Of a stretch of 30,173 bases of DNA, positions 9,067 to 16,529 are shown piece by piece. Location of the stretch: NCBI GenBank assembly GCA_040349235.1, contig JBEQUD010000285.1:1-30173 (forward strand), read 5' to 3'. The notes below the pieces were generated by a model that worked only from the letters and a program-made list of their open reading frames with translations, did not search any database and was not told the DNA's origin. The stretch is from Acidobacteriota bacterium. Lineage in GTDB: Bacteria; Acidobacteriota; Vicinamibacteria; Vicinamibacterales; CAVVIG01. The first letter of the stretch is position 1; each line of letters starts with the position of its first letter. The translations under genes and the position numbers were made by a program.

Positions 9067-9318
9067 ATGCCCGACCCCTTCGCCCGGTTCGTATCGGCCC
9101 GCAGTGTGTTCGTCGAAGATGCCGCCGCGCTGCTCGGCGTGTCGCGACGCACGATTTACTACCGGATTCGGGACGGGAAGCTCGCGACGATTCGTACCCG
9201 GGGCGGATCGCAGCGTGTGCTCGTCGAGTCGATCGGCGCGCTGTTGAGGCAGGAACGGCGGGCGAGGCAGGTGCGGGGGAGGACCGACGGCGTCAGAGCC
9301 CTAACCGATGGCGCTTGA
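9067..9318 (+). CDS. Small excisionase/BldC-like (MerR-type, HTH_17) DNA-binding protein, 83 aa
   Basis: VEDAAALLGVSRRTIYYRIRDGKLATIR pattern; 30/45 identical to the N-terminus of the subtilase at 14255-16324. Confidence 0.85.
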   Translation: MPDPFARFVSARSVFVEDAAALLGVSRRTIYYRIRDGKLATIRTRGGSQRVLVESIGALLRQERRARQVRGRTDGVRALTDGA

Positions 9319-12019
9319 GATACAGGCCCTTGCGTGAGATGCCCAGCGCCCGTGCCGCGGCGTCCACCCGGCCGTGGTGTTCTCGAAGGGCGACCTTGAT
9401 CATCTCGCGCTCGACCTGCGCGAGCGTGGTGTTGAGCTTGTTCGTCAGGCCAACCGCGATCTCGCGCCCGCCCGCGGGCGGTGTGGATGGGGTGCTGACC
9501 TCACGCGCCCGTCCGATGTCCGGAGACAGCAGACTCGTCGCGAGGACCGAGTGCGACTCGGCGATCGCGACGATCCGTCGGATCTCATTCTGGAGCTGCC
9601 GGACGTTGCCGGGCCATTCGTAGAGGACAAGCCGCTCCATCGCCTCCTCCGAGATGCGGACGTGCGTCTTCCTGAATTCCTCGGAGGCTCGCATCAGGAA
9701 GTTGCTCACGAGCGTCGGGATTTCGTCCCGCCGCTCGCGCAAGGGCCGCAGGGAGAGCCGGACGATGTTGAGCCGATAGAAAAGGTCTTCGCGGAAGCGT
9801 CCCTCTTTGACGAGGGCCTCGAGCTTCGAGTTGGTCGCCGCGACAATCCGCACGTCCACGACGAACGGCGCAGACTCGCCAAGCGGGCAGATCTCGCCGG
9901 ACTCCAGGAAGCGGAGCAGCTTGGGCTGCAACTCCAGGCTCAGTTCCCCGACTTCGTCGAGGAACAGCGTGCCATCCCGAGCGCTACGGATTACGCCAGG
10001 ATTGTCCCGATCCGCACCTGTGAAGGCCCCGCGGCGGTGACCGAACAACTGGCTCTCGAGCATCTCCCGTGGGATAGCCGCGCAGTTGAAGGGGACGAAG
10101 GGATGCTTGGCGCGACTCGAGTGTGTGTGGATGGCGCGCGCGACGACCTCCTTGCCCGTTCCGCTCTCGCCGGTGATGAGCACGCCGATGTTCGCGTGGG
10201 CGATCTTCTTCGCAAAGGTGATGACCTCGCGCATGTGACCGACCGTTACCGCGCCATCGCCGTCCGCCGGCAACTCGTCGATCGGCCAGAGCGTCGCGCG
10301 CTCCTCCCGCTCGGCCCGCGCGCATTCGAGGTCCCGCAGTGTCGCGACGATGAGGCCGATGGCGTTGACGGTTGCAATGGACTCGAGATCGTCTTTGGGT
10401 GTGAGCACGAGACTGACGTCTCGCTCCCCAGCCTTGCCGATCGCGACCCGCCGTCCGCCGCGCCGGCACCGTCGCTCGGGCTCCCCCGTTTCCGCCAGCG
10501 TCTCGACAACGCCATCGGTGCCGCGTGCCTCCGCTGCCGCGTGCCACACACTGCCTGTCTTGCCGAGCAGGTCGATCAACTCGGTCGCGATGAGGATGGG
10601 CCGACCAACATGGAGCGTGAGGGATGCCACGCTGTGCAGAGCGCTTGAGGGCGATAGGAATTGCTCGTCCGAATCTATCTCTGCGTTTGGGGAATTGGAA
10701 CACGCTCTTTCCCAAGCGTTCGCAAGCTCGAGCGCTCCGGCGTGATGCTGAAGGTCGCCAAAGATTCTTGCCGAGCGCCGGCGGTGGCAATCACCGGCGC
10801 CCATTTGGCCGGCTCGAACTGTCGCGCAGGCGAGAACTCGTTCATAGTGCGCAGAGAAATCTGGTGGCTGTTGAGGAATGGATAGCATGAGGTCTCGAAG
10901 AATCGAGCCACACTCATCCAATCGGCCGGCCTCCTGCAGGAAGTCCGCCTTCGATAGCGAGGCGATATTGCCGAAGAACTCGTCTTTTGCGCGCGTCGCG
11001 AGGCCGATCACAAATTCGATCTGACGGAGAGCTCCATCAATGTCGCCTTGTCGAGCCAATAAGACCGCGCGGGTCATCTGGGCGTGCCGGTATACGAACC
11101 TAGCCTGATCACCGCTCTCGCGCGCCTCCGACTCAATTTCATCAAGAACCCTAGCGCAGTTAGCGATGTGATCTTGTGCAAGATGAATACGAGCCAGAGT
11201 GTCAAGGCACCCTACCCAGGTATCCGATCCCCTCCTCGTTGTTCTTGCGCGCGTCAAGAAATCGTAGGCCTCGTCAAACCTTCCGGCAAGGTAGGCTAAG
11301 TGGCCGAGATTGCCAAGGGCACTCTCTCGAATGCTGGAAGCCCCGGCGTCCTCGGCGATGTCAAGCGACGTGCGCGCGTGCGTATTGGCTGCGACGAAGT
11401 TGGAGCACATTGTCTCGACCGCGCACGCCACATTCTCCACTAACGCCTCTAGCCAACGGTTTCCTGAGGAGGCCAGCCCGCGCCTTCCCATTTCCAGGTG
11501 GCGACGTGCGTTTCTCAGCAAACCCCGCTTGGCCTCTGTCTCCGAGACGTGGATATGAAGAGCGGCGACAATTCCAGAATTGCCGGTGTTCATAACGCGT
11601 GAGCGAAGTTCTGCCAGCATCGAGGCGATCGAATCCGGGCCAGAACGGTCGGAAAGGACGAGCAGGAGTCTCAACTGGGCCCAGCAAGCACGCTCTTGAT
11701 CATTGCCCTCAAGCGCAAGCGTCACCGCTCGCTGGAGTTGCGCGGTTGCAATTGCTGAATGGCCGTGCTCAATATTCACTCGGGCCAGCACGAGTTCACA
11801 GGAACTGCGCTCGGAGGGACTTAGGCCCTTCCCACGCAGCAGCGATTCCGCAAGCGCTGAACTCTTCTCGTATTGGCCTAGTCGTTCGAGTAGTTCTGCC
11901 CGTAGAACATCCGTCGATCGGCGGACGACGCCGATTGAGGCTGTATCTCGAAGAATTGCCAGCGCTTCTCTGAAGCGTCCCGCGTCGCGTAAGGCCTTGG
12001 CCTCATCCATGTGCACCAT
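9293..12019 (-). CDS. Sigma54-dependent activator (bEBP): TPR-like N-terminus + AAA+ + Fis HTH, no receiver domain
   Basis: Walker A GESGTGKE, FGHRRGAFTGA, Walker B LFLDEVGE, REDLFYRL, WPGNVRQLQN, C-terminal AAARALGISRKGLY; helical Ala/Leu repeats in the N-terminal ~470 aa. Start uncertain (TTG 12106, ATG 12019 or ATG 12010). Confidence 0.93.
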   Translation of the reverse strand: MVHMDEAKALRDAGRFREALAILRDTASIGVVRRSTDVLRAELLERLGQYEKSSALAESLLRGKGLSPSERSSCELVLARVNIEHGHSAIATAQLQRAVTLALEGNDQERACWAQLRLLLVLSDRSGPDSIASMLAELRSRVMNTGNSGIVAALHIHVSETEAKRGLLRNARRHLEMGRRGLASSGNRWLEALVENVACAVETMCSNFVAANTHARTSLDIAEDAGASSIRESALGNLGHLAYLAGRFDEAYDFLTRARTTRRGSDTWVGCLDTLARIHLAQDHIANCARVLDEIESEARESGDQARFVYRHAQMTRAVLLARQGDIDGALRQIEFVIGLATRAKDEFFGNIASLSKADFLQEAGRLDECGSILRDLMLSIPQQPPDFSAHYERVLACATVRAGQMGAGDCHRRRSARIFGDLQHHAGALELANAWERACSNSPNAEIDSDEQFLSPSSALHSVASLTLHVGRPILIATELIDLLGKTGSVWHAAAEARGTDGVVETLAETGEPERRCRRGGRRVAIGKAGERDVSLVLTPKDDLESIATVNAIGLIVATLRDLECARAEREERATLWPIDELPADGDGAVTVGHMREVITFAKKIAHANIGVLITGESGTGKEVVARAIHTHSSRAKHPFVPFNCAAIPREMLESQLFGHRRGAFTGADRDNPGVIRSARDGTLFLDEVGELSLELQPKLLRFLESGEICPLGESAPFVVDVRIVAATNSKLEALVKEGRFREDLFYRLNIVRLSLRPLRERRDEIPTLVSNFLMRASEEFRKTHVRISEEAMERLVLYEWPGNVRQLQNEIRRIVAIAESHSVLATSLLSPDIGRAREVSTPSTPPAGGREIAVGLTNKLNTTLAQVEREMIKVALREHHGRVDAAARALGISRKGLYLKRHRLGL

Positions 12020-12109
12020 TGCGTCGCTCGTTTCATGTGGGGTGAGAGCCAAACTCTTCCATATTCCGTAGCTGTTTTGGAAGTGATAATGGATGAGCCT
12101 CGACAAGAA

Positions 12110-12209: not shown

Positions 12210-14198
12210 CTAGCCCTCTTGGCGACGAACCACTACTGACCTGGCGGCGAACGGCACGGTGTCTAGTGCGCCGGCCACGATCTGTGTCTGGCAGATGTCA
12301 CCAAAACTATCCCACAGGGAATCATGGCCGCGCGCTATTGCTTCGAGCGCCCGTCGGTCGCCGTCGCTAAACCCATTCTCAGAGGCTGTGTAGAGGGTAA
12401 TCACTCCGAGGAATCGTTTGCTGCTGGTGAGCGGGGTGCTCAGGCACGCTTGGAGGCCGCGGTCTAATGCAATGTCTCCAAGGTCGAGGGCTGCCGCCGA
12501 ATTAAGGATGGTCTGGTTGTTCACGGCTACCCAACCACTCAGGCGCTGTCCCAGAGGTATTCTCAAGGTATCCAGGTCTGCCGCGCCGGCGCCGAACGCC
12601 GCCGCAACTTCTAGCTCGTCGATAGCTCGGTTGTTGATGAAAAGCACACCCAGTGAAAAATCAATCGACGCGCTCGTCAGCGCGCGCAAACGTTCTGTTG
12701 CGTCGAAATGAGACTGAAGCGCCAAAGAGTCTGGCATCGTGCCGTCGCTGCGCTTGCTCTCCTCCGGCAACCGGTGCGGAGCTTGAAAACTCGCCTGGGT
12801 GGCCGCGACGATCTCTCGAAGTGCGTGTCTAGGAGGCCCAAGCGATGTCTCTTTGGGCGCAATGTCCCTGTAGACCCTGGCGAAAGTATCCACGACTAGG
12901 GGATCGTACATTGATCCCCGTCTCTCCTGCAGGATGGCCAGTGCCGCCTCGTCGGAGAGGCGAGGACGATATGGTCTGTCTGATGTCAATGCATCGAAGC
13001 AATCGACAACCGAGAGAATCCTGGCGCCAATGGGGATGTTGGTTCCGCAAAGTCCCTCAGGATATCCGGTGCCATTCCAGCTTTCGTGGTGACACCTAAC
13101 GATGGGAACGACTGGATACGGAAAGTCGATCGCTCCGAGGATATCGGCGCCGATTGTTACGTGCAACTTCATTTTTTCAAACTCGACCGGCGTGAGCTTG
13201 CCCGGCTTGTTCAGGATGTACTCGGGTACAGCCAGCTTGCCCATGTCATGAAGCAAGGCGGCCGCCTCGATCGCCTTGATGAGCTTTTCATCGCTTACGC
13301 CAAGCTCCTTTGCGAGCCCGACCGCGTAAGCCTGCACCCGTCTAATGTGCCCGTGGGTGATCTGATCTTTGGCGTCTATCGCCATTGCCAGTGTTTCGAT
13401 CGTCGAGAGATACAGTGTGTTCAATTGCCCAACGTGTCTGTAGGCGTCCTCCACTCGTTCCATTGATGTCTTGAACGTGAAATAGAGCACAAGTAAGAGA
13501 GGCACCACGATCCCAACAAACCGCAAGTCGATGGTTCTGTTGTAGCCCACAAGGAGTACGGCGACTGACGCGCCGCAAAAGTAGTTGAGGGAAAGCCACA
13601 CGAACCCGTCACGCCAGACGTCAAGGACGTTTGCTCGTCGGTGGATGGCAATGCGCACAGCGATTAGTCCACTGTTGAGGCCGAAGTATGTAACTGCGAA
13701 CAGAACTAGAGACGGTAGGATCTGGTTCAGTGAGGCGGGCTGTTCGGACAGCGGCGCAATCCCGGAGGCCTTAAAGAATAGTTGCGCGGAGCACCAGGCT
13801 GACAATGCGGGCGCCGCTATATTGAACAGCACTCGCTCCACTTCCGGACGCCGTTTGGCTAGCCAGAAGGAGATAACCAGGCCGTCAAGGGCGACAGTGA
13901 GCGTTCCGGCTGATGGCCCGTATAGAAGGACGGCCGCGAAGACGAAGGCTTCGGAGATTGAGATGGTTACGTTCGTTCGAGGCAGTTCGACGCCGGCTGA
14001 GCCGCTGATCAGCGTCAGAAGACCAAGAAGCAACCATTGGGCGCCAATAGGTACGCGGTAAAGATGAACAAGGGATTCCCCGATCGCGAGGAATCCCATG
14101 AGGATCACGAGGAATACGAATGTCCTGCCGAGGCGAGACAAGGGTGAGCCAGTGGATGCCGTGGGCCAAGCAGTTATCGGTTGTTTAGTCCCAAACAA
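12210..14198 (-). CDS. HD-GYP cyclic dinucleotide phosphodiesterase with ~7-TM N-terminal sensor and C-terminal GAF
   Basis: DAKDQITHGH, LLHDMGK, HHESWNGTGYP, VDCFDALTSDRPYR all intact; hydrophobic N-terminal ~240 aa; GAF-like GLSGW-type segment (QRLSGWVAVN) and STPL...GVITLY...FSDGD. Start uncertain (TTG 14198). Confidence 0.92.
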   Translation of the reverse strand: MFGTKQPITAWPTASTGSPLSRLGRTFVFLVILMGFLAIGESLVHLYRVPIGAQWLLLGLLTLISGSAGVELPRTNVTISISEAFVFAAVLLYGPSAGTLTVALDGLVISFWLAKRRPEVERVLFNIAAPALSAWCSAQLFFKASGIAPLSEQPASLNQILPSLVLFAVTYFGLNSGLIAVRIAIHRRANVLDVWRDGFVWLSLNYFCGASVAVLLVGYNRTIDLRFVGIVVPLLLVLYFTFKTSMERVEDAYRHVGQLNTLYLSTIETLAMAIDAKDQITHGHIRRVQAYAVGLAKELGVSDEKLIKAIEAAALLHDMGKLAVPEYILNKPGKLTPVEFEKMKLHVTIGADILGAIDFPYPVVPIVRCHHESWNGTGYPEGLCGTNIPIGARILSVVDCFDALTSDRPYRPRLSDEAALAILQERRGSMYDPLVVDTFARVYRDIAPKETSLGPPRHALREIVAATQASFQAPHRLPEESKRSDGTMPDSLALQSHFDATERLRALTSASIDFSLGVLFINNRAIDELEVAAAFGAGAADLDTLRIPLGQRLSGWVAVNNQTILNSAAALDLGDIALDRGLQACLSTPLTSSKRFLGVITLYTASENGFSDGDRRALEAIARGHDSLWDSFGDICQTQIVAGALDTVPFAARSVVVRRQEG

Positions 14199-14254: not shown

Positions 14255-16324
14255 CTAGTCGAGTGTAGCGCCTGACCAAACAATGGATTGTCCGGTTGCG
14301 TCTGACCAAACGATGGACTGGCCTGTCGAGCCTGACCAGACAATGGATTGATTTGTCGCGTCGGACCAAACGATGGAGTCTGACCAAACAATTGATCCAG
14401 ACCACACGATAGACTTTGCATCGAGCATCTGGCTCGACCACTGGATGGGTTCATTTGAGCCCGACCACACGATTGAGTTTGCGCCGGGCGCTGCCCCAGA
14501 CCACACAATTGATCCCGACCAGACGATCGATCCCGACCAGACGATCGATCCCGACCAGACGATTGAATGTGGCGAGAGCCGTGAGCCCGACCAGACGATC
14601 GAGTCAGACCACACGATTGAATCAGGTCTCACTCTCGCCCCGGACCAGACGATCGAGACCGTACGGACGAGACTTCCGGACCAGACTATTGAATTCCCCA
14701 GTAAGAGCCGTTGGCCTCCTGGAGTGTTTCTTGCCAAGATTCCGCTGCCCACCGCCCTTTCTCCAGCGATCTGCGTCGCTGGCAACACTCCGTTAAGGCC
14801 GACTTCGATGAAGTCTGCAGCGGCGAGCACGTTCAGACTTCCAGAGCCACCATCAAGAATCCCGACCGCTGGCGAGAACGAGCTGGTGAGCTGCAGGATC
14901 GTCTTCGTTTCCCCCGGCTGTAGTCCGCCTCTTTCGTCCAGTAGTAACGCGGCGGCGCCGCTGACCACCGCCGCGGCCATGCTCGTGCCCGAGAGCTGCA
15001 TGTAGGCGTTGGCCCCGGTGCCGCTGACGTGCCGCTGCGGATAGTTCGTGCTGAGGTACGAGTTCGCGGATTCGGCCCCGTGGATGTGGGCGCCGGGCGC
15101 CGCGAGGTCCGGCTTCAGGACGCGATCGTAGGCGGTTGGGCCGCGCGAGCTCCAGGGGGCCACGGTGTCGTCCGAGCGCTGGGGTGTGTCGTGCGTGTCG
15201 AGGGCGCCGACCGTCAGGGCGTAGGGACTGTTGCCAGGGGACGTGATGCCGCCGATGACGTTCTTGCCGTCCGCGGTCTGGCCGAAATTGCCGGCCGCCG
15301 CGACGACGAGGATTCCGGCGCGCGTCGCCCGTTCGACGGCCTCGCACAGCGGGTCGTCGCGGAACGGCTGCAGGACGGGGGCGCCGAGCGACAGATTGAT
15401 GATGCGGATGTTGAACTGGCCGCGGTGGCGGATGGCCCAGTCGATGGCCTCGACGACGTCGCTTGCATTGCCGGAGCCGTCGGCGCCGAGGGCGCGCAGG
15501 TTGATCAGCCTGGCGCCGTACGCGATGCCGCGGTAGCTGGCCGCGGAGTTGCGCGAGAGACCGGCGATGATCGAGGCAACGTGGGTGCCGTGCCCGTAGC
15601 GGTCCTGGCCGTTGCCGCCGGTGAAGTCCACGGATGCCACGACGCGGTTGCGGAGCGCCGCGTGCGTCGTATCAATCCCGGAATCGATGACGGCGACGCC
15701 GACGCCGTTGCCCGAGAGCGGGTCGAGTGCGCCGGCGCCAGCCCATACCTGATCGGCGCCAATCGACTCCGCGGTGACGTCCGCGAGGGACTGCACGCGG
15801 CTGTCGCTCGAAAGGTGATCGATGGCGTCGTCCTGTTGCAGGGCGTCGAGCTGGCCGGAATTGACGCGGACGACCGCGCCGCTCTCCAACTTTCGCTTGA
15901 TGACAAGGTTGTACTTCCGGGCGATGCCGGTCACTTCCTGGTCGCTGCCGTGGACGATGACGTTGATGTCCTGTCCGCCTCGGTTCAGGCGGTCTGCCAG
16001 GTCCGAACTGAGTCGTGCGCGGTGCTGGGCAGCGGCGGGTCTGATGCAGAGCGCGAGTAATAGGACGGCCGTGCCGGCTGTGCGGGCTTGTTGCCGCCAC
16101 GCCGAGACTGGGGCTGGGGCGGGATCCCGCAATTCCACGATCGACTCGAGCAGCACGCGCTTGGATGCACCAAACGTTCGCACCGTCCGGAGGCGGCCCT
16201 CGCTGATCCTGCTGTACACCGTTCGGCGCGACACGCCGAGCAGCGCCGCCGCTTGGTCGATGGAAACGCTGCGACCGACGAGCACGTCGTGAGTCGGACG
16301 AGAGAAGTCCTGAGACAGGGGCAT
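14255..16324 (-). CDS. S8 subtilase with N-terminal HTH_17 domain, internal signal peptide, prodomain and C-terminal SIVWS repeat tail, 689 aa
   Basis: Catalytic triad VAVIDSGID, HGTHVA, GTSMAAA; oxyanion AAGN; GGAGG RBS before ATG 16324. Confidence 0.94.
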   Translation of the reverse strand: MPLSQDFSRPTHDVLVGRSVSIDQAAALLGVSRRTVYSRISEGRLRTVRTFGASKRVLLESIVELRDPAPAPVSAWRQQARTAGTAVLLLALCIRPAAAQHRARLSSDLADRLNRGGQDINVIVHGSDQEVTGIARKYNLVIKRKLESGAVVRVNSGQLDALQQDDAIDHLSSDSRVQSLADVTAESIGADQVWAGAGALDPLSGNGVGVAVIDSGIDTTHAALRNRVVASVDFTGGNGQDRYGHGTHVASIIAGLSRNSAASYRGIAYGARLINLRALGADGSGNASDVVEAIDWAIRHRGQFNIRIINLSLGAPVLQPFRDDPLCEAVERATRAGILVVAAAGNFGQTADGKNVIGGITSPGNSPYALTVGALDTHDTPQRSDDTVAPWSSRGPTAYDRVLKPDLAAPGAHIHGAESANSYLSTNYPQRHVSGTGANAYMQLSGTSMAAAVVSGAAALLLDERGGLQPGETKTILQLTSSFSPAVGILDGGSGSLNVLAAADFIEVGLNGVLPATQIAGERAVGSGILARNTPGGQRLLLGNSIVWSGSLVRTVSIVWSGARVRPDSIVWSDSIVWSGSRLSPHSIVWSGSIVWSGSIVWSGSIVWSGAAPGANSIVWSGSNEPIQWSSQMLDAKSIVWSGSIVWSDSIVWSDATNQSIVWSGSTGQSIVWSDATGQSIVWSGATLD
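14270..14692 (-). repeat. Intragenic repeat: 15 x SIVWS(G/D) plus one PIQWSS variant
   Basis: Counted from manual translation: 11 end in G and 4 in D; codons vary between copies; 18-nt tandem array at 14513-14566. Confidence 0.97.
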
Positions 16325-16353
16325 CGTGAAGTCCTCCGGTTTCCGTGTGTAAA

Positions 16354-16369
16354 CGCACGCCCGATACCA
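16354..16369 (-). promoter_or_regulatory. Candidate sigma54 promoter for the subtilase gene
   Basis: TGGTATcgggcGTGCG has GG-N10-GC spacing; implied +1 near 16343, about 19 nt before the ATG, with GGAGG in between. Weaker match than the 9040 site. Confidence 0.5.
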
Positions 16370-16405
16370 CACGGCGCACCCGGCAGGCGTTCGCTGTTTG
16401 TCTGC

Positions 16406-16420
16406 TGTAAGTCGCTTACA
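16406..16420. promoter_or_regulatory. Palindrome TGTAAG-N3-CTTACA
   Basis: Perfect 6-bp inverted repeat upstream of the subtilase promoter candidate. Confidence 0.45.
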
Positions 16421-16529
16421 TCCAGTTGTTTAGCTCTAGGGACTCAGCCGCGGCGCATCTCGAGAGACGGCACGATTCGGCCAAGAAACTGTCCAGTTGG
16501 CACGGTCTCTCGCGGTGGCTCGCTATTTT

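Follow-up and report, generated by a model that had tools for sequence, protein, structure and literature searches.

In-frame fusion of a small helix-turn-helix gene with a secreted subtilase gene: a recurrent minority derivative of a two-gene arrangement in Vicinamibacterales

The window, a 30,173-nt contig (JBEQUD010000285.1) from the genome of a soil acidobacterium of the order Vicinamibacterales (GCA_040349235.1), encodes on its minus strand a secreted protease of the S8 subtilase family with a predicted DNA-binding helix-turn-helix (HTH) domain in front of its signal segment. The gene may be read as the product of a natural merger in which the first two genes of a sigma-54 module were joined in frame, and the fusion would resolve itself at the membrane. 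The probability of this reading is put at about 0.5. The architecture is real and recurrent, yet it is a minority derivative of the ordinary two-gene arrangement, and a special function is unproven.

The fused gene and its reliability

The gene runs from an ATG at 16324-16322 to a stop codon at 14257-14255 as one open reading frame (ORF) of 689 amino acids; its parts and neighbours are listed in Table 1. A search against the own genome matched the ORF at 100% over residues 1-689 with zero stops, and reading of the sequence found zero stop codons between HTH and signal. A first-pass annotation of the window had described a DNA-binding HTH in frame ahead of a Sec-like signal on a secreted protease, and the ORF and the profile matches bear this out. 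Its motifs for the n-region, the h-region and the PAAA/Q cleavage site were correct; residue numbers, absent there, are supplied below.

An assembly or sequencing error that joined two genes is extremely improbable. The own genome is a metagenome bin, 69% complete and in 503 contigs, and related long-read contigs (L005, L010) show probable indel errors. However, Logan contigs aligned to positions 15700-16500 had 0 differences; their cover was piecewise and included the HTH, the linker and part of the h-region. Besides the probable source run, three further samples contributed these contigs, and two of the three belonged to other studies. The join is of a clean deletion type and does not consist of a single-base change. 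The same architecture occurs in the genomes G023 (the fused gene is identical in two further assemblies), G123 and G038 and in the metagenome contigs L003/L004. The HTH-protease junction is reproducible and is no assembly slip.

Arrangement of the module in homologues

The module starts with a small HTH_17 gene, followed by genes for a secreted S8 protease, an HD-GYP/GAF protein and a sigma-54 activator with tetratricopeptide repeats (TPR). The window locus has this gene order and a sigma-54 promoter and lacks the separate small HTH gene. A survey covered 151 genomes of the order, and the DNA of 43 distinct loci was read. Of 30 species-representative genomes inspected directly, about 26 have the HTH as a separate gene. 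HTH and protease were fused without a stop codon in four of the 43 loci (own genome, G023, G123 and G038). They were split in 26, where a stop closes the HTH ORF 53-88 codons after the HTH match begins, just upstream of the protease gene. Eleven loci held protease copies without an upstream HTH, one (L047) held an apparently decayed second copy and one (L049) had no HTH match. About 15 further pairs were split, as judged from coordinates only. The split arrangement was found across many families of the order. In the syntenic loci L011 and L012, a separate 83-aa HTH_17 gene ends with 1-2 stops and a 30-nt spacer precedes the S8 gene, which has its own start and signal.

Among the protein matches, only the closest protease homologues (P0002, P0005 and P0006) carry the HTH. 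They share the genomic context of the window: mtgA and a DHDPS gene lie divergently upstream, and the HD-GYP/GAF and TPR sigma-54 activator genes lie downstream. The protease family is large, with more than 5000 matches from soil, many labelled AprX, Acidobacteria or Vicinamibacterales. Nearly all members have about 580-620 amino acids and an ordinary N-terminal signal peptide. A search with residues 1-105 in 1.8 billion representative proteins gave 817 matches at E<=0.001, and the best 150 of these were nearly all stand-alone proteins of 70-130 amino acids. In relatives, the tail of the free HTH protein varies and measures 8-40 amino acids. Metagenome contigs added further fused cases, namely L001/L002 (identical to G023), L003/L004 and L005, together with the fragments P0122, P0123 and P0127. 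Sequence identity in the fused clade has fallen to about 63-71%, with the HTH kept throughout.

The first-pass annotation had proposed to examine whether homologues keep the fusion in frame, and had named a stop codon between HTH and signal as evidence against its idea. Several diverged homologues do keep the frame, but the majority are split (26 split versus 4 fused) and have precisely such a stop. The alternatives it had offered for that case, a recent read-through or a sequencing error, are excluded: the fusion is a real merger of operon neighbours, derived, in the minority and recurrent. It is no conserved design of the family; two genes are the normal state in the order.

Five genomes with equal open-frame values (G004, G103, G136, G137 and G110) were candidates for additional fusions and were all split when the DNA was read. 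Also rejected was the idea that the split genes rely on programmed frameshifting or stop-codon read-through. HTH and protease were in the same frame in 5 of 19 pairs, where chance predicts one third, and the stop codons were mixed.

Some loci showed irregular or duplicated arrangements. In L005 and L010, which are long-read style contigs, genes are fragmented and the frame changes within the HTH or the linker. Upstream of its Met, the protease frame of L010 reads an RRRP motif in common with the linker of the fused L005, and the split state of L010 may be an indel error. A second HTH-protease copy (L047; G079:C4:364300-367258) is located near a contig end. Its HTH match covers 783-914, and its frame continues for 431 codons through apparently out-of-frame sequence before a stretch resembling the protease pro-region; it is probably a frameshifted or decaying copy. 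Genome G138 has two complete HTH and protease pairs on different contigs (C14 and C17), so duplication of the whole two-gene unit is possible.

Origin and recurrence of the fusion

The phylogenetic tree was calculated from the pro-region and the catalytic domain of the protease. It placed fused genes in at least four places on well-supported branches and forced at least four changes. The approximately unbiased (AU) test rejected a single fused clade with p=2.8e-42, and with p=4.3e-8 when L010, a long-read contig with a probable indel, was counted as fused. A single ancient fusion was ruled out by the tree and this test.

The linkers of the fused lineages have no sequence in common. The distance from HTH to pro-region is 97-124 nt in fused genes versus 161-309 nt in split genes. 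The shorter distance fits deletions that removed the HTH tail, the stop codon, the spacer, the Shine-Dalgarno (SD) sequence, the start codon and the n-region. The split state is read as ancestral and the fusions as derived, because the HTH and protease families are overwhelmingly unfused.

Promoter, ribosome-binding sites and internal starts

A sigma-54-type element, TGGTATCGGGCGTGC, precedes the fused gene at 16369-16355. Most related loci, fused or split and from several families of the order, have TGGCAC-N5-xTGC about 40 nt ahead of the HTH start. The pattern TGG-N9-TGC was present at the same position in 15 of 24 distinct loci, and several of the remainder were one-base variants. A -24/-12 element so close to the HTH start suggests a very short leader and control by the TPR activator of the module. 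Together with the activator gene in the module, this layout would make the HTH cistron the 5'-proximal reading frame of the message.

The GGAGG that had been noted as a ribosome-binding site (RBS) in front of the HTH start was found. The HTH starts of fused genes pair with the anti-SD sequence at a free energy (dG) of -9.3 to -10.3, with -6.6 in L003. Two in-frame codons, GTG (V63, directly before the linker) and TTG (L65), lie between HTH and signal in the window. The TTG scored dG -2.5 versus an in-gene background mean of -2.9, and no GGAG-like run was seen by eye in the 20 nt ahead of the GTG. This agrees with the earlier reading that no separate SD-led start precedes the signal. In the fused genes generally, ATG, GTG or TTG codons ahead of the signal scored dG -1.1 to -3.3, at background; the exception was L003 with -7.3. 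In split genes, the S8 start has its own SD with a median dG of -6.6, many of them GGAGG. Judged by these pairing energies, the internal RBS is lost in all fused lineages except L003.

With a single ORF and no stop codon, each ribosome that translates the conserved HTH would continue into the protease. Since no SD-led internal start is apparent either, each HTH molecule from the fused gene would begin attached to the pre-protease. A gene with two products is quite improbable. Here, internal initiation close to the former start codon (V63 or L65 in the window) would yield most of the protease, and the fusion protein would be a minor by-product. Every fused gene has an in-frame ATG, GTG or TTG shortly before the signal, with Met in G023, L005, G123 and G038. 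The ATG of G038 would give a textbook short signal (M-R-hydrophobic-AxA), and L003 has the SD-like run. However, an SD is missing ahead of the internal codons in five of the six fused lineages, whereas the split genes have one. Without a stop codon, the fusion protein would also be no rarer than the HTH itself.

The HTH domain and its free paralogue

Residues 21-64 matched Pfam HTH_17 (PF12728) with 31.5 bits at a cut-off of 27. The NCBIfam model TIGR01764 ('excisionase family DNA-binding') matched the fused protein with 32.1 bits at a cut-off of 28.8. The nearest solved sequence was PDB 4j2n, 'Gp37', with E 0.004. AlphaFold was run on the whole protein with an 18-row alignment. The mean predicted local distance difference test score (pLDDT) of the whole protein was 52, with the catalytic domain and the tail poorly modelled; the HTH, the signal helix and the pro-region were usable. 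The model of the HTH has strands at residues 19-20, 47-49 and 55-58 and helices at 22-29, 33-41 and 59-65, with block-mean pLDDT values of 75-87. This is the winged-helix topology strand-helix-helix-strand-strand-helix. The HTH is a predicted DNA-binding domain of the HTH_17/excisionase family.

The ratio of nonsynonymous to synonymous changes (dN/dS) in the HTH core was 0.06-0.38 in fused pairs versus 0.04-0.34 in split pairs, with synonymous sites near saturation. Pairs with the window gene had values of 0.16-0.38. Identity to the family consensus was 36.8 of 45 residues in fused and 35.4-36.8 in split genes. Relaxed selection on the fused HTH was not seen in dN/dS or consensus identity, and these values indicate continued purifying selection on the HTH after fusion.

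The window encodes a second, free HTH_17 protein at 9067-9318. Its gene is convergent with the sigma-54 activator gene and overlaps the 3' end of the latter slightly. The paralogue retains every highly conserved HTH column. The window's fused HTH is changed at two columns that are conserved in at least 85% of sequences (G36A and Q38K in core numbering); it is slightly more altered than most copies and had the lowest Pfam score in this analysis. An extra HTH copy of this kind is present in L005 and L010 and absent from L001, L011 and L012. No close HTH copy other than the fused one was found at E<=1e-8 in G023 and G038, so that the HTH must work from the fused position there.

In the own genome, the fused HTH might plausibly be a passenger: the free paralogue would regulate, and the fused domain would be a tolerated extension that is degraded with the signal peptide. 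The intact paralogue within the same module and the two broken columns of the fused copy fit such a role. It is nevertheless quite unlikely. The dN/dS values of the window pairs are still low, the fused genes of G023 and G038 have no close second copy and the fused clade, at its present divergence, still keeps the HTH.

The linker and the signal segment

The AlphaFold model is disordered at residues 66-78 and has a helix at 79-93. The signal consists of the n-region WRQQAR (W76-R81), a 13-residue h-region (T82-I94) and the c-region RPAAA (R95-A99). R77 and R81 are positively charged, P96 is a helix breaker and small residues occupy the -3 (A97) and -1 (A99) positions. A cut by signal peptidase I at A99/Q100, in the motif AAA/Q, is likely from these features. 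The segment aligns with the N-terminal signal peptides of more than 100 unfused homologues, all of which end with AxA followed by (Q/A)HRARLSADL. In one feature it differs from an ordinary signal peptide: it is not at the extreme N-terminus but starts at residue 76, behind a folded domain.

Fused and split signals were compared. The uncharged run had a mean of 19.8 residues in fused versus 20.8 in split signals, and the peak hydrophobicity was 2.83 versus 2.82. The small residues at -3 and -1 are retained in fused signals. A signal lengthened into an anchor after fusion was not seen in length, hydrophobicity or -3/-1 residues. By these measures, fused and split signal segments are indistinguishable, and the segment looks cleavable, unlike an anchor. 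The segment keeps every feature of a cleavable signal, and the earlier description of a Sec-like signal behind an in-frame HTH agrees with the sequence and the comparison of homologues.

An uncleaved signal-anchor would make a type II membrane protein, a one-component regulator like ToxR or CadC with the protease facing outward on the cell. Membrane-bound HTH regulators are known: ToxR, CadC and TcpP cross the membrane once, with the DNA-binding domain in the cytoplasm and another domain outside. Their transmembrane helices are stable and their DNA-binding domains are OmpR-type winged helices. The N-in topology fits the window protein, in which positive charges precede the hydrophobic segment. 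However, a stable anchor has about 18 or more hydrophobic residues, and the core in the window has only 13, followed by R-P-A-A-A. All fused segments match the signals of unfused orthologues in length and hydrophobicity and have kept the small -3/-1 residues. A signal-anchor is very unlikely.

Proposed course of a self-resolving fusion

The fusion may have arisen by a deletion that took the HTH tail with its stop codon, the spacer, the RBS and start codon of the protease and most of the signal n-region. One ribosome start would then yield a pre-pro-protease with a 99-aa leader, composed of the folded predicted DNA-binding domain and an ordinary Sec signal. The HTH would fold in the cytoplasm, and the signal would insert in N-in/C-out orientation via the signal recognition particle (SRP) and Sec. 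Signal peptidase I would cut after A97-A98-A99, and the pro-protease would leave. The remaining 99-aa stub of HTH and signal would be removed from the membrane by general clearance enzymes, either S2P/RseP-type proteases or SppA. Clearance would yield a soluble HTH resembling the free HTH of relatives, the resemblance being expected because the tails of the free proteins are variable anyway. HTH and protease would end on opposite sides of the membrane. As a side effect, the supply of HTH would be tied one-to-one to the export of protease. A self-resolving fusion of low cost would be nearly neutral, which would account for both recurrence and persistence.

The release steps have precedents. Signal peptides already cut by leader peptidase are cleared by RseP (PMC8144685), and the N-terminal cytoplasmic part of RsiV is freed by signal peptidase followed by the S2P protease RasP (PMC9044953). 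The own genome has S26 signal peptidase genes and M50/S2P matches on C218 and C231. S2P was present in 14 of 14 control genomes and is near-universal, as is S26, so that their presence supports the release steps weakly.

Several points weigh against this course. The prevalence of the split state and the lack of fusion in the wider families, rather than a rooted reconstruction, were the grounds for inferring a change from split to fused. SD-independent internal initiation is possible. The window HTH has the two altered columns, and with a free paralogue present it could be partly redundant. It is atypical for a signal to begin 75 residues into a protein, and such a signal could act as an uncleaved anchor or weaken export.

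The first-pass annotation had gone further and proposed that an intramembrane protease releases the HTH and so couples transcription to protease export; both the S2P release and the coupling are pure inference. In its full form, this would be a dedicated, adaptive device, in which the HTH stays at the membrane as long as the protease has not been exported and cut. Regulated intramembrane cleavage would then free it to adjust transcription of the module, whose expression would thereby report the flux of secretion. Each step is mechanistically possible, with precedents in RsiV (PMC9044953) and RseP (PMC8144685). The fused HTH is under purifying selection, it is the only close copy in G023 and G038, and the fusion has recurred. 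Such a device is unlikely all the same. Most relatives run the module with a free HTH, so the coupling is dispensable, and no feature of signal or linker is specific to fused genes, whose linkers are unrelated. A neutral, self-resolving fusion of tightly packed genes would be expected to recur just as well. It is similarly doubtful that the leader is a functional long signal peptide of a bacterium, which brings a folded transcription-factor domain to the membrane for release by signal peptidase and an intramembrane protease. The dose of freed HTH would then report the exported protease and feed back on the sigma-54 module, and fused and split forms would be alternative wirings of one circuit.

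Comparison with known systems

The split module of other Vicinamibacterales is the closest system. It shares with the window the gene order, the neighbours and the sigma-54 promoter; its HTH and protease belong to the same families, and a second small HTH paralogue likewise lies at its far end. It differs in having the HTH as a separate gene, whereas the window has one ORF and has lost the protease RBS. A published description of this module of HTH, S8, HD-GYP and bacterial enhancer-binding protein (bEBP) genes was not found in the literature searched, and a 2008 survey of subtilase architectures does not mention an HTH.

For the proposed self-resolution of the fusion, the nearest functional analogues are RsiV-type proteolysis, S2P clearance and long two-domain signal peptides; none of them is a sequence relative. 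RsiV of the sigma-V system in Bacillus subtilis and Clostridioides difficile (PMC9044953) has an N-terminal cytoplasmic regulatory domain, one membrane segment and an outer AxA-type site, and the sequence layout of the window protein fits this order of parts. RsiV is cut by type I signal peptidase, after which S2P (RasP) releases the cytoplasmic part; the window protein would be processed in a similar way. RsiV is an anti-sigma factor with a receptor as outer domain, and its cut is gated by lysozyme binding, whereas the window protein would have an HTH inside and a pro-protease, derived from an ordinary secreted enzyme, outside, and no gating is evident. The two proteins have no sequence relationship.

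In clearance by RseP/S2P (PMC8144685), the signal peptide left in the membrane is the substrate, and the fragments can be functional, as with enterococcal pheromones. The known bacterial cases are short signal peptides of about 20-30 amino acids, none with a folded 65-aa N-terminal domain. Long two-domain signal peptides, described by the NtraC model (PMC2447879) and in the Env protein of HERV-K(HML-2) (PMC2649029), have leaders of about 100 amino acids with a functional part before the targeting part. After signal peptidase cleavage, the N-terminal part acts in the cytosol or nucleus. These leaders belong to eukaryotes and retroviruses and use the machinery of the endoplasmic reticulum, so the likeness is an analogy only.

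With the excisionase and HTH_17 proteins (TIGR01764; 4j2n 'Gp37'), the window HTH shares profile scores above the cut-offs and the winged-helix topology. It differs from them in lying outside any mobile element and lacking an integrase; the conserved partner here is a secreted protease, encoded behind a sigma-54 promoter.

If the proposed course holds, a cytoplasmic DNA-binding domain can precede a cleavable signal peptide and be recovered. A limited literature search, none of it aimed at that question, found no described case of a folded bacterial DNA-binding domain ahead of a cleavable signal peptide. Close relatives with the same parts as separate genes are natural matched controls. They make the tolerance of signal peptides for N-terminal cargo and the fate of the stub testable. 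For annotation, the case is a warning that an 'architecture' of HTH and secreted enzyme can be two merged operon neighbours. The case also firmly links the small HTH and the protease, which are cistrons one and two of a sigma-54 module that is uncharacterised and occurs widely in soil Acidobacteriota.

Pro-region, protease and tail

The residues directly after the cleavage site, (Q/A)HRARLS(A/S)DL (16010-16027, minus strand), are near-invariant family-wide in more than 100 homologues. A103, R104, S106, D108 and L109 are invariant in alignment A1. Such conservation in the first residues of a pro-region is unusual. The subtilase has its Asp, His and Ser motifs (VIDSG, HGTH and SGTSMA), and the nearest solved structure of the S8 domain is 3afg (E 1.5e-44). 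The C-terminal tail had no Pfam match and was poorly modelled by AlphaFold. IVW(G) repeats also occur in the family consensus, and the number of IVWG-type repeats varies across the family.

Table 1. Features of the fused gene and its module in the window (position 1 is the first nucleotide of the 30,173-nt stretch).
Feature	Position	Strand	Basis or remark
TPR + sigma-54 activator (AAA+) + HTH_8, downstream module gene	9293..12106	-	Same neighbour in L001, L011, L012
Stand-alone 83-aa HTH_17 paralogue	9067..9318	+	61% identical to aa 15-65 of the fused protein
HD-GYP (HD_5) + GAF protein, downstream module gene	12210..14198	-	Same neighbour in L001, L003, L011, L012
Fused gene: HTH_17, linker, Sec-type signal, pro-region, S8 subtilase, SIVWSG/D repeats	14258..16324	-	Single ORF
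C-terminal tail, about 15 SIVWS(G/D) repeats	14258..14692	-	Sequence
Peptidase_S8 catalytic domain, aa 205-481	14882..15712	-	Pfam PF00082, E 2e-52; catalytic motifs
Pro-region, I9-like beta-alpha-beta fold, starts with HRARLSxDL	15755..16027	-	AlphaFold, block-mean pLDDT 75-94 (aa 100-178)
Sec-type signal segment, aa 76-99	16028..16099	-	Sequence; alignment with N-terminal signals of unfused homologues
Linker, aa 65-75, predicted disordered	16100..16132	-	AlphaFold; sequence unrelated to linkers of other fused lineages
Predicted HTH_17/excisionase-type winged-helix domain, aa 21-64	16133..16264	-	Pfam and NCBIfam above cut-off; AlphaFold topology
Shine-Dalgarno sequence GGAGG, 8 nt ahead of ATG 16324	16333..16337	-	Anti-SD pairing dG -9.5
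Sigma-54-type promoter TGGTAT-N6-TGC, GG at -24 and GC at -12	16355..16369	-	31 nt ahead of ATG

Further HTH proteins with membrane or signal-like segments

Two metagenome representatives combine HTH units with other segments. P0148 (210 aa) has three tandem HTH_17-like units followed by a hydrophobic segment at the C-terminal end and is possibly truncated. It may be another case of an HTH ahead of a membrane or signal segment. P0124 (144 aa) has an HTH of the window family and a signal-like segment ending with PAAAQ. Its downstream sequence is unlike the protease pro-region and represents either a different cargo or a frameshift.

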